A stretch of 64,000 bases of DNA from Escherichia coli. GTDB lineage: Bacteria; Pseudomonadota; Gammaproteobacteria; Enterobacterales; Enterobacteriaceae. The stretch is from assembly GCF_016026235.1 (NCBI RefSeq), contig NZ_CP065613.1; one strand, given 5' to 3'. Below, in pieces: positions 33,061 to 34,344 of this stretch (the stretch's first letter is position 1; each line of letters starts with the position of its first letter). Below the pieces are notes generated by a model. That model was not told the DNA's origin and made no database searches. It saw only the letters and a list, made by a program, of their open reading frames with translations. Position numbers and translations under genes: made by a program.

Positions 33061-34344
33061 ATGGCTCTTAACACACCACAAATTACGCCGACAAAAAAGA
33101 TAACAGTGAGGGCAATCGGCGAGGAACTCCCGCGTGGTGATTACCAACGTTGCCCGCAATGTGACATGCTGTTTAGCCTGCCCGAGATAAATTCTCATCA
33201 GAGTGCCTATTGTCCGCGCTGTCAGGCAAAAATTCGCGACGGGCGCGATTGGTCGCTAACGCGCCTGGCGGCAATGGCTTTCACCATGCTGTTGCTGATG
33301 CCGTTTGCCTGGGGCGAACCGCTGTTGCATATCTGGCTGTTAGGCATTCGTATTGACGCCAACGTTATGCAAGGCATCTGGCAAATGACCAAACAGGGCG
33401 ATGCGATAACGGGGTCGATGGTCTTTTTCTGCGTTATCGGTGCCCCCCTCATTCTGGTGACCTCCATAGCTTATTTATGGTTTGGTAACCGACTGGGAAT
33501 GAATCTACGCCCGGTACTGCTGATGCTTGAGCGACTTAAAGAGTGGGTAATGCTGGATATCTACCTGGTCGGCATTGGCGTTGCTTCTATAAAGGTACAG
33601 GATTATGCCCATATCCAGGCTGGTGTCGGCTTGTTCTCTTTTGTGGCGTTGGTGATTTTAACGACGGTGACGTTGTCACATCTTAATGTCGAAGAACTGT
33701 GGGAGCGATTTTATCCGCAGCGCCCCGCTACGCGTAGGGACGAGAAACTTCGTGTCTGTCTTGGGTGCCATTTTACCGGCTATCCTGATCAGCGTGGTCG
33801 CTGCCCGCGTTGCCATATCCCGCTACGACTGCGTCGCCGTCATAGTCTGCAAAAATGCTGGGCGGCGCTGTTAGCGTCAATCGTTTTGTTGTTACCTGCC
33901 AACCTGTTGCCTATTTCTATCATTTATCTGAACGGAGGACGGCAGGAAGATACAATTCTTTCCGGAATTATGTCGCTGGCAAGTAGCAACATTGCGGTTG
34001 CGGGAATCGTGTTTATCGCCAGTATTCTGGTACCGTTTACTAAAGTGATCGTCATGTTCACTTTACTGTTGAGCATTCATTTTAAATGCCAGCAAGGTTT
34101 ACGCACACGCATTCTGTTACTGCGGATGGTGACCTGGATTGGTCGCTGGTCGATGCTCGACCTGTTTGTCATATCTTTAACCATGTCGCTGATTAATCGC
34201 GATCAGATCCTCGCTTTTACTATGGGACCGGCTGCGTTTTATTTCGGCGCAGCGGTAATTTTGACTATTCTTGCTGTGGAATGGCTGGACAGCCGCTTAC
34301 TTTGGGATGCACATGAGTCAGGAAACGCCCGCTTCGACGACTGA
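33061..34344 (+). CDS. letA: PqiA-family inner membrane protein LetA (YebS)
   Basis: 427-aa ORF recognised as YebS. Confidence 0.85.

Follow-up and report, generated by a model that had tools for sequence, protein, structure and literature searches.

A conserved 32-bp overlap of letA and letB in Escherichia coli, with a fixed letB start codon and a drifting letA stop

The window, a 64,000-nucleotide stretch of Escherichia coli DNA, carries letA (yebS) and letB (yebT) in the conserved neighbourhood prc-proQ-msrC-letA-letB-rsmF. The two genes lie on the same strand, and the literature calls them an operon by prediction. As read from the sequence and from the ORF list, the letA stop codon is the TGA at 34342-34344, and the annotated letB frame opens upstream of it (Table 1). 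LetA belongs to the LetA/PqiA family, since it contains two PqiA modules (PF04403; Pfam, E=1e-81) in a single chain of 427 aa, where ~420-430 aa are expected. LetB, encoded directly 3' of letA, combines an N-terminal membrane anchor with seven MlaD/MCE domains (Pfam, E=1.4e-84), of which a LetB protein should have six to eight. Additionally, the C-terminal 100 residues of LetA match chain A of PDB entry 9n8w at 100%, and LetB of the window matches chain B of the same entry (877 aa, N-terminus MSQETPAS) from residue 1. These domains and structural matches confirm the identities that a sequence-only reading of this DNA had given to the two genes. At LetB codon 35 (34412-34414), a transmembrane helix position, the window encodes Gly (MIAGW) and the PDB chain has Ser (MIASW); Gly is found here in 95% of relatives.

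Table 1 Features of the letA-letB region in the window and junctions of distant homologues
Feature	Position or overlap	Strand	Remarks
letA (yebS) CDS	33061..34344	+	427 aa; ORF list, translation and RefSeq coordinates
Near-invariant block	34264..34330	+	about -47 to +17 of the letB ATG; letA codons 402-424
TTG opening the mechanical ORF	34271..34273	+	letB frame; overlap would be 74 bp
U-rich tract and weak Shine-Dalgarno-like GGGA	34297..34307	+	LetA Leu413-Leu414-Trp415-Asp416 codons
Upstream in-frame ATG	34307..34309	+	6 nt 5' of 34313; overlap would be 38 bp
letB (yebT) CDS	34313..36946	+	877 aa; +1 frame relative to letA
letB initiation codon ATG	34313..34315	+	AT of the His418 codon (cAT) and G of the Glu419 codon in letA
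Dual-coding overlap	34313..34344	+	LetA 418-427 and stop; LetB 1-10 and 2 nt
Small predicted hairpin CGCUUC-N7-GAAGCG	34330..34348	+	spans the letA stop
Next downstream in-frame ATG (LetB Met32)	34406..34408	+	
Terminator-like hairpin	36954..36979	+	8 nt past the letB stop; 11-bp stem with 8 GC pairs (consensus scan)
L085 junction	56-nt overlap		LetA 50% identity; same prc-proQ neighbourhood
L087 junction	38-nt overlap		Avibacterium
L090 junction	11-nt overlap		
L088 junction	8-nt overlap		clustered with a Vibrio protein
L092 junction	8-nt overlap		
L089 junction	no overlap		candidate ATGs 1 and 25 nt past the stop

The letB ATG was placed by the sequence-only reading inside the last 32 bp of letA, and the coordinates, RefSeq and K-12 all agree with this placement. 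Specifically, RefSeq gives yebS and yebT identical coordinates and the 32-bp overlap in the two E. coli genomes inspected, and the annotation of K-12 MG1655 contains the 32-bp overlap as well (letA, b1833, 1916258..1917541; letB, b1834, 1917510..1920143). The K-12 junction is identical to that of the window base for base, and the LetB N-terminus is the same in both. A 4-kb query recovers the operon from all but two of 5426 complete E. coli genomes (5424), and 5160 of the 5424 are 100% identical over a 95-nt junction segment; identity of at least 99% across the 4-kb operon is reached by one E. coli genome only (FDAARGOS_943). A 2026 paper on LetA (PMC13017536) states the letA-letB overlap outright. 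The overlap of 32 bp is real and conserved in the letAB operon, and it has already been annotated and published. According to the same paper, LetA residues 419-427 and LetB residues 1-13 are missing from the cryo-EM map, and thus the overlap encodes two structurally unresolved tails. The paper also reports a complex of one LetA with six LetB, and a plasmid, pBEL2071, in which letA and letB were refactored as non-overlapping ORFs for deep mutational scanning; this plasmid serves there as a working template for functional selection.

The letB start codon was assessed in a comparison set of 80 Enterobacteriaceae loci, with LetA identities of 76-97%, in which the candidate starts were listed locus by locus. 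ATG 34313 is kept in 80/80 loci. Its first two bases come from the LetA His418 codon, for which 77/77 sequences use CAT; at two further invariant His positions of LetA, the CAT:CAC ratios are 42:35 and 55:22. From -60 to -1 relative to this ATG, essentially all polymorphisms are silent in letA and change the amino acid in the letB frame, with one of them making a stop there; from +5 the pattern is reversed, most substitutions being silent in letB and altering LetA. As an example, a G>C change at 34327, seen in 23 sequences, is silent in LetB Thr5 and converts LetA Ala423 to Pro. Since the substitution pattern flips at ATG 34313, purifying selection changes reading frame at this codon. The segment is a genuine dual-coding overlap, in which the start codon is conserved and the constraint switches frame at the start.

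Other codons in the letB frame do not behave as starts. No in-frame ATG, GTG or TTG occurs between 34316 and 34405 (LetB codons 2-31), and therefore every usable letB start overlaps letA. The sequence-only reading held that a downstream in-frame start would undo the overlap; the next such codon, Met32, lies inside the transmembrane helix of residues 14-45 described in PMC13017536, is Met in only 60% of relatives, and its use would remove the KNKRR anchor. Two upstream candidates went unmentioned in that reading. The first, ATG 34307, is absent in about 20 of the 80 loci, where it is lost through a synonymous GAT>GAC change or an A417T substitution in letA; it was present on the synthetic RNA of the INRI-seq experiment described below (PMC9825163), yet no alternative yebT start is listed in Table S3 of that study. 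The second, TTG 34271, opens the mechanical ORF and, as a start, would have made dual coding the reason for the upstream conservation, but it is ruled out by the common substitutions at 34271-34312, all of which are non-synonymous in the letB frame with one being a stop, and by the distant homologues, which have no such extension (in L085 a stop stands 4 codons 5' of the ATG).

The letA stop codon is mobile between lineages. In four Enterobacteriaceae loci the TGA has become GGA by a change that is synonymous in letB (ACT>ACG), so that letA runs 12 nt further, LetA has 431 aa and the overlap measures 44 nt. Distant homologues, retrieved by a representative-protein search with contig look-ups, provided six loci outside Enterobacteriaceae (Table 1). 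Three of these, L085, L087 and L090, have LetA identities of 37-50% and place the letB ATG at the identical site as in the window, after the LetA motif DSRL[L/I]W, where the ATG spans the 4th and 5th codons counted from the Trp. In these three loci and in the window, UUAYUYUGGRA stands 5' of the ATG at a constant 5-nt spacing. This shared position indicates that the end of the last LetA helix fixes where letB starts, and the overlap length varies between lineages because the LetA tail length varies. Judged from these alignments, the position of the ATG is conserved and the stop-to-start distance appears not to be under selection.

The region around the letB start is also constrained at the nucleotide level. 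Across letA, the mean synonymous codon entropy is ~1.2-1.3 bits and 3% of the degenerate codons are invariant. Fourfold sites elsewhere show only 44% pairwise identity, and the sample is thus divergent enough for low entropy to be meaningful. Nearly every codon of letA from 402 to 427 is invariant, and the rare codons TTA, CTT, TCA and GGA are among them. Specifically, codons 402-417, which lie 5' of the letB ATG and are not dual-coding, have an entropy of 0.29 bits over 14 degenerate codons, compared with a minimum of 0.81 bits among 359 other equal-sized letA blocks. On the letB side, codons 1-11 have 0.23 bits versus 1.1-1.2 bits further downstream. The near-invariant block, which is more tightly constrained at synonymous sites than any other stretch of letA, could act as a dedicated cis-regulatory element beyond a ribosome-binding site and dual coding, for instance as a ribosome standby site or as a target of a small RNA or an RNA chaperone. 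We consider such an element quite unlikely; if real, it would allow one mRNA to fix or adjust LetA:LetB synthesis at 1:6.

The start signals of letB lie within this block. The GGGA at 34304-34307 is followed by a 5-nt spacer to the ATG, and its duplex with the 3' tail of 16S rRNA is worth -4.0 kcal/mol, which is the best value in the 20 nt upstream and is equalled by 28% of random coding positions in the operon. The start of letA itself pairs with the 16S 3' tail at -1.5 kcal/mol. In the U-rich tract, the rare codons TTA and CTT are invariant. A consensus search for an internal letB promoter gave no match near the junction, where a conserved TTGACT at 34260 stands without a -10 partner. Over the letA stop, single-sequence and alignment folding both predict a small candidate hairpin (Table 1); it pairs in 98.5% of cells with no double-sided changes, and its stems are also under coding constraint. 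Downstream of letB, the terminator-like hairpin is followed by a weak T-run, and by its predicted fold it likely marks the end of the letAB transcription unit. The next gene, rsmF, has two candidate starts 6 nt apart, the ATG at 37020 that opens the ORF and the GTG at 37026 used in RefSeq and K-12; both score -2.8 kcal/mol, and neither has a convincing Shine-Dalgarno sequence.

Published initiation data address the letB start directly. INRI-seq (PMC9825163) used retapamulin in a purified translation system that was supplied with a synthetic transcriptome of E. coli K-12; every RNA comprised the start codon with the 30 nt before it and 150 nt of coding sequence. The yebT start (1917510) gave peaks of 29.8, 49.1, 35.1, 61.8 and 69.1 CPM and was identified in 5/5 replicates (Table S2), and the yebS start gave 6.3-7.9 CPM. 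RNA abundance was 541 CPM for letA versus 58.7 CPM for letB, a difference of ~9 times (Table S4). Per RNA, the signal of the letB start is therefore far above that of the letA start, in what is a rough comparison from a denatured-RNA system. Neither yebS nor yebT appears among the alternative starts (Table S3). Since the letB RNA included the -6 ATG and lacked the letA start, ATG 34313 was chosen in vitro without upstream translation. These RNAs are short and heat-denatured, and the assay is blind to the long-range structure and the ribosome traffic of the native mRNA. The in-vivo Ribo-RET values reported alongside are zero for both genes, and hence uninformative. Searching the literature, we found no experiment on coupling at the letA-letB junction, and neither yebS nor yebT has an entry in the Mori 2021 supplements or in those of the TRAINSPOTTER N-terminomics paper.

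These data show directly how the junction is built and conserved, that constraint switches frame at the ATG, and that letB can initiate autonomously in vitro. The explanation that we favour, with reasonable though limited confidence, is that letB has an autonomous start with a weak Shine-Dalgarno sequence, embedded in letA and covered by a dispensable LetA tail, with coupling being at most minor. The initiation region within the 3' end of letA would consist of the U-rich tract, the GGGA of Trp415-Asp416, the 5-nt spacer and AUG 34313, which is supplied by the His418-Glu419 codons CAT-GAG, and the disordered C-terminal tail of LetA would merely extend across the first ten letB codons. Ribosomes would load mainly de novo at the letB start, which would let more LetB than LetA be made, as needed for the 1:6 complex. 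Since letA is itself poorly initiated, ribosomes translating it would seldom pass over the letB start; those that pass may keep the site open or occasionally re-initiate, giving a minor coupled component. We infer that de novo initiation is dominant in vivo and that the relative strengths of the two starts set the LetA:LetB ratio, an argument whose ratio is taken solely from the stoichiometry of the complex, as a search for in-vivo synthesis rates of LetA and LetB returned none.

Two further points favour an autonomous start. The refactored, non-overlapping operon is usable for functional selection, and in the paralogous pair pqiA-pqiB the spacing is +4 with a GAGGAG, so a long overlap is no requirement of the family. 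A point against it is that a weak Shine-Dalgarno sequence is typical of genes that rely on coupling.

The sequence-only reading had taken the overlap as consistent with translational coupling of the two genes. The overlap itself is real and permits coupling, which is not thereby demonstrated. Strict coupling, whether obligatory or 1:1, is unlikely in view of the INRI-seq data, the LetA1:LetB6 complex, the drifting stop, the refactored operon, the spacing and the folding and covariation scans, in which no conserved inhibitory RNA structure was detected around the start. Coupling cannot be the whole story, because 1:1 reinitiation falls short of six LetB, the stop-to-start distance is unselected and the start initiates autonomously in vitro. 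According to a review (PMC12548453), coupling is most efficient at spacings of -4 to +3 nt, and its efficiency drops faster with growing overlap than with positive spacing; long-overlap precedents are the coat-lysis pairs of phages fr (-38) and MS2 (-50), and the start nearest the stop is preferred. The letA-letB spacing of -32 nt lies outside the window of -4 to +3, and relatives range from -56 to -8 nt or have positive values.

One form of coupling would work through RNA unfolding: the letB start would be sequestered in the full-length mRNA until a ribosome translating or terminating letA opens the region, after which a new 30S subunit loads. While paused at the letA stop, with an overlap of 32 nt, a ribosome would lie just past the letB start and not cover it, as proposed for MS2 coat-lysis. 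The candidate structure, part of a larger stem, pairs -10..-3 (GGGAUGC) with +55..+62 of letB and is predicted at a probability of ~0.9-1.0 when at least 200 nt of context are folded; if this helix is real, letB translation would need letA ribosomes to unfold it. Such a mechanism agrees with the weak Shine-Dalgarno-like element, with the strong conservation of the nucleotide block around the start and with the large negative spacing, which fits the model as in MS2 (-50 nt; PMC12548453). However, the folding energies around the letB start are no different from those of shuffled sequences (z = -0.41 over 140 nt; z = +1.37 over 80 nt), the alignment folds returned nothing significant, and the segment -30..+15 has a stability that is average for the operon. 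Across 76 aligned sequences, a set that is highly conserved and gives low power, the helix shows no covariation beyond shuffles (284/500 reach the observed pairing), and its central U-A pair is broken in 18/76. In addition, letB initiates in vitro without letA translation, and one letA ribosome opening the site once would hardly yield six LetB per LetA. We regard unfolding by letA ribosomes as unlikely to be the dominant route.

Another form of coupling would be termination-reinitiation, in which the ribosome that ends LetA at 34342-34344 remains on the mRNA, moves back over 32 nt and initiates again at AUG 34313. The mechanism has been demonstrated for fr coat-lysis (-38), with a -50 nt precedent as well, 34313 would be preferred to 34307 by the rule that the start closest to the stop is chosen (PMC12548453), the Shine-Dalgarno-like element is weak, and LetA and LetB form one complex. 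We nevertheless hold this explanation very doubtful, as it supplies at most one LetB per LetA where six are needed, and as coupling is best at -4..+3 and falls faster with overlap (PMC12548453). The stop-to-start distance of 11-56 nt is unconserved alongside a conserved ATG position, a change synonymous in letB has shifted the stop by 12 nt in four lineages, and initiation in vitro proceeds without upstream translation. Finally, that the overlap is an annotation artefact, with letB truly starting at ATG 34307, TTG 34271 or a downstream codon, is scarcely credible: long overlaps often reflect misannotated starts, two ATGs stand 6 nt apart and the K-12 letB protein accession is at version 2, the record having once been revised, but all candidate starts 5' of the transmembrane helix still overlap letA, ATG 34307 is lost in ~20 loci, TTG 34271 lies in a non-coding frame, Met32 is poorly conserved and within the membrane helix, and the INRI-seq peak falls at the annotated start with no alternative listed.

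The letA-letB junction can be set beside those of other gene pairs. The coat-lysis pairs of fr and MS2 resemble letA-letB in that the downstream start lies inside the upstream gene, at -38 and -50 nt, and the start nearer the stop is used. In the phages, dependence on upstream termination has been shown experimentally and an inhibitory hairpin is defined, whereas at letA-letB no conserved structure was found and initiation in vitro is autonomous. The E. coli paralogue pqiA-pqiB-pqiC shares with letAB a PqiA-family membrane protein followed by a multi-MCE protein in co-directional genes, and the start signals of its second gene also lie within the 3' end of the first. Unlike letB, pqiB begins 4 nt past the pqiA stop behind a strong GAGGAG with no long overlap, and pqiB-pqiC has the common ATGA overlap of 4 nt, which also differs from letA-letB. 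ATGA (4-nt) and TGATG (1-nt) overlaps are like letAB in that co-directional genes of one complex share stop and start bases, but they sit in the most efficient coupling window (-4..+3) and letA-letB falls outside it. More than 80% of overlapping pairs share less than 30 bp, which places the 32 bp of letA-letB in the long tail.

In the K-12 pqiA-pqiB region (L083, 2242-2262), an in-frame ATG occurs 18 nt 5' of the annotated pqiB start, within the last 14 nt of pqiA, so that pqiB could be read as overlapping pqiA. This ATG lies in CATGAG, the same hexamer as the letB start; its position does not align with that in LetA, and we take the shared hexamer as coincidence.

Unlike K-12, the strain of the window carries an IS1 element and gene decay near letAB. 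The IS1 (40001-40767; transposase ORF 40249-40752, Pfam DDE_Tnp_IS1, E=6e-78) interrupts the ryeA/sdsR small-RNA locus relative to K-12; it sits close to the sdsR 5' end and divides ryeA in two. Rfam matches at this locus cover 39903-40049 (+), 39907-40012 (-) and 40732-40831 (+), the split of ryeA by the insertion accounting for a second, weaker SraC/RyeA match past IS1. Further on, a single 381-aa ORF at 40955-42097 (-) joins yebZ (CopD family) and yebY (DUF2511). Compared with K-12, ~62 bp are deleted here (K-12 1923726-1923787), so that YebZ lacks its C-terminus and continues in frame into full-length YebY, an arrangement resembling the gene decay of Shigella-like lineages. In FDAARGOS_943 (NZ_CP065615.1 869500-874200), pphA is directly followed by the type III effector gene ipaH3 and by prophage tail genes, whereas the window continues past pphA with IS1 and then yebY/yebZ, has no ipaH3 there and diverges from FDAARGOS_943 at this point. 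Elsewhere in the window, Rfam matches above the gathering score include a cspA-type thermoregulator at 23956-24416 (-; 135.7 bits, full model length) and sroD at 3024-3109 (-; 115.2 bits).

Beyond correct annotation, the importance of the letA-letB overlap is small. What is mildly new is the switch of constraint frame at the ATG, the fixed start with a drifting stop, and the unusually strong synonymous constraint that reaches ~47 nt 5' of the letB start. Mutations placed in the final ten LetA codons or the initial ten LetB codons alter both proteins and possibly the letB start signals, and the nucleotide-level constraint on letA codons 402-419 is invisible to mutational scans on refactored constructs. 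With a 1:6 complex made from overlapping genes, letAB offers a small, tractable case for unequal subunit synthesis within an operon.
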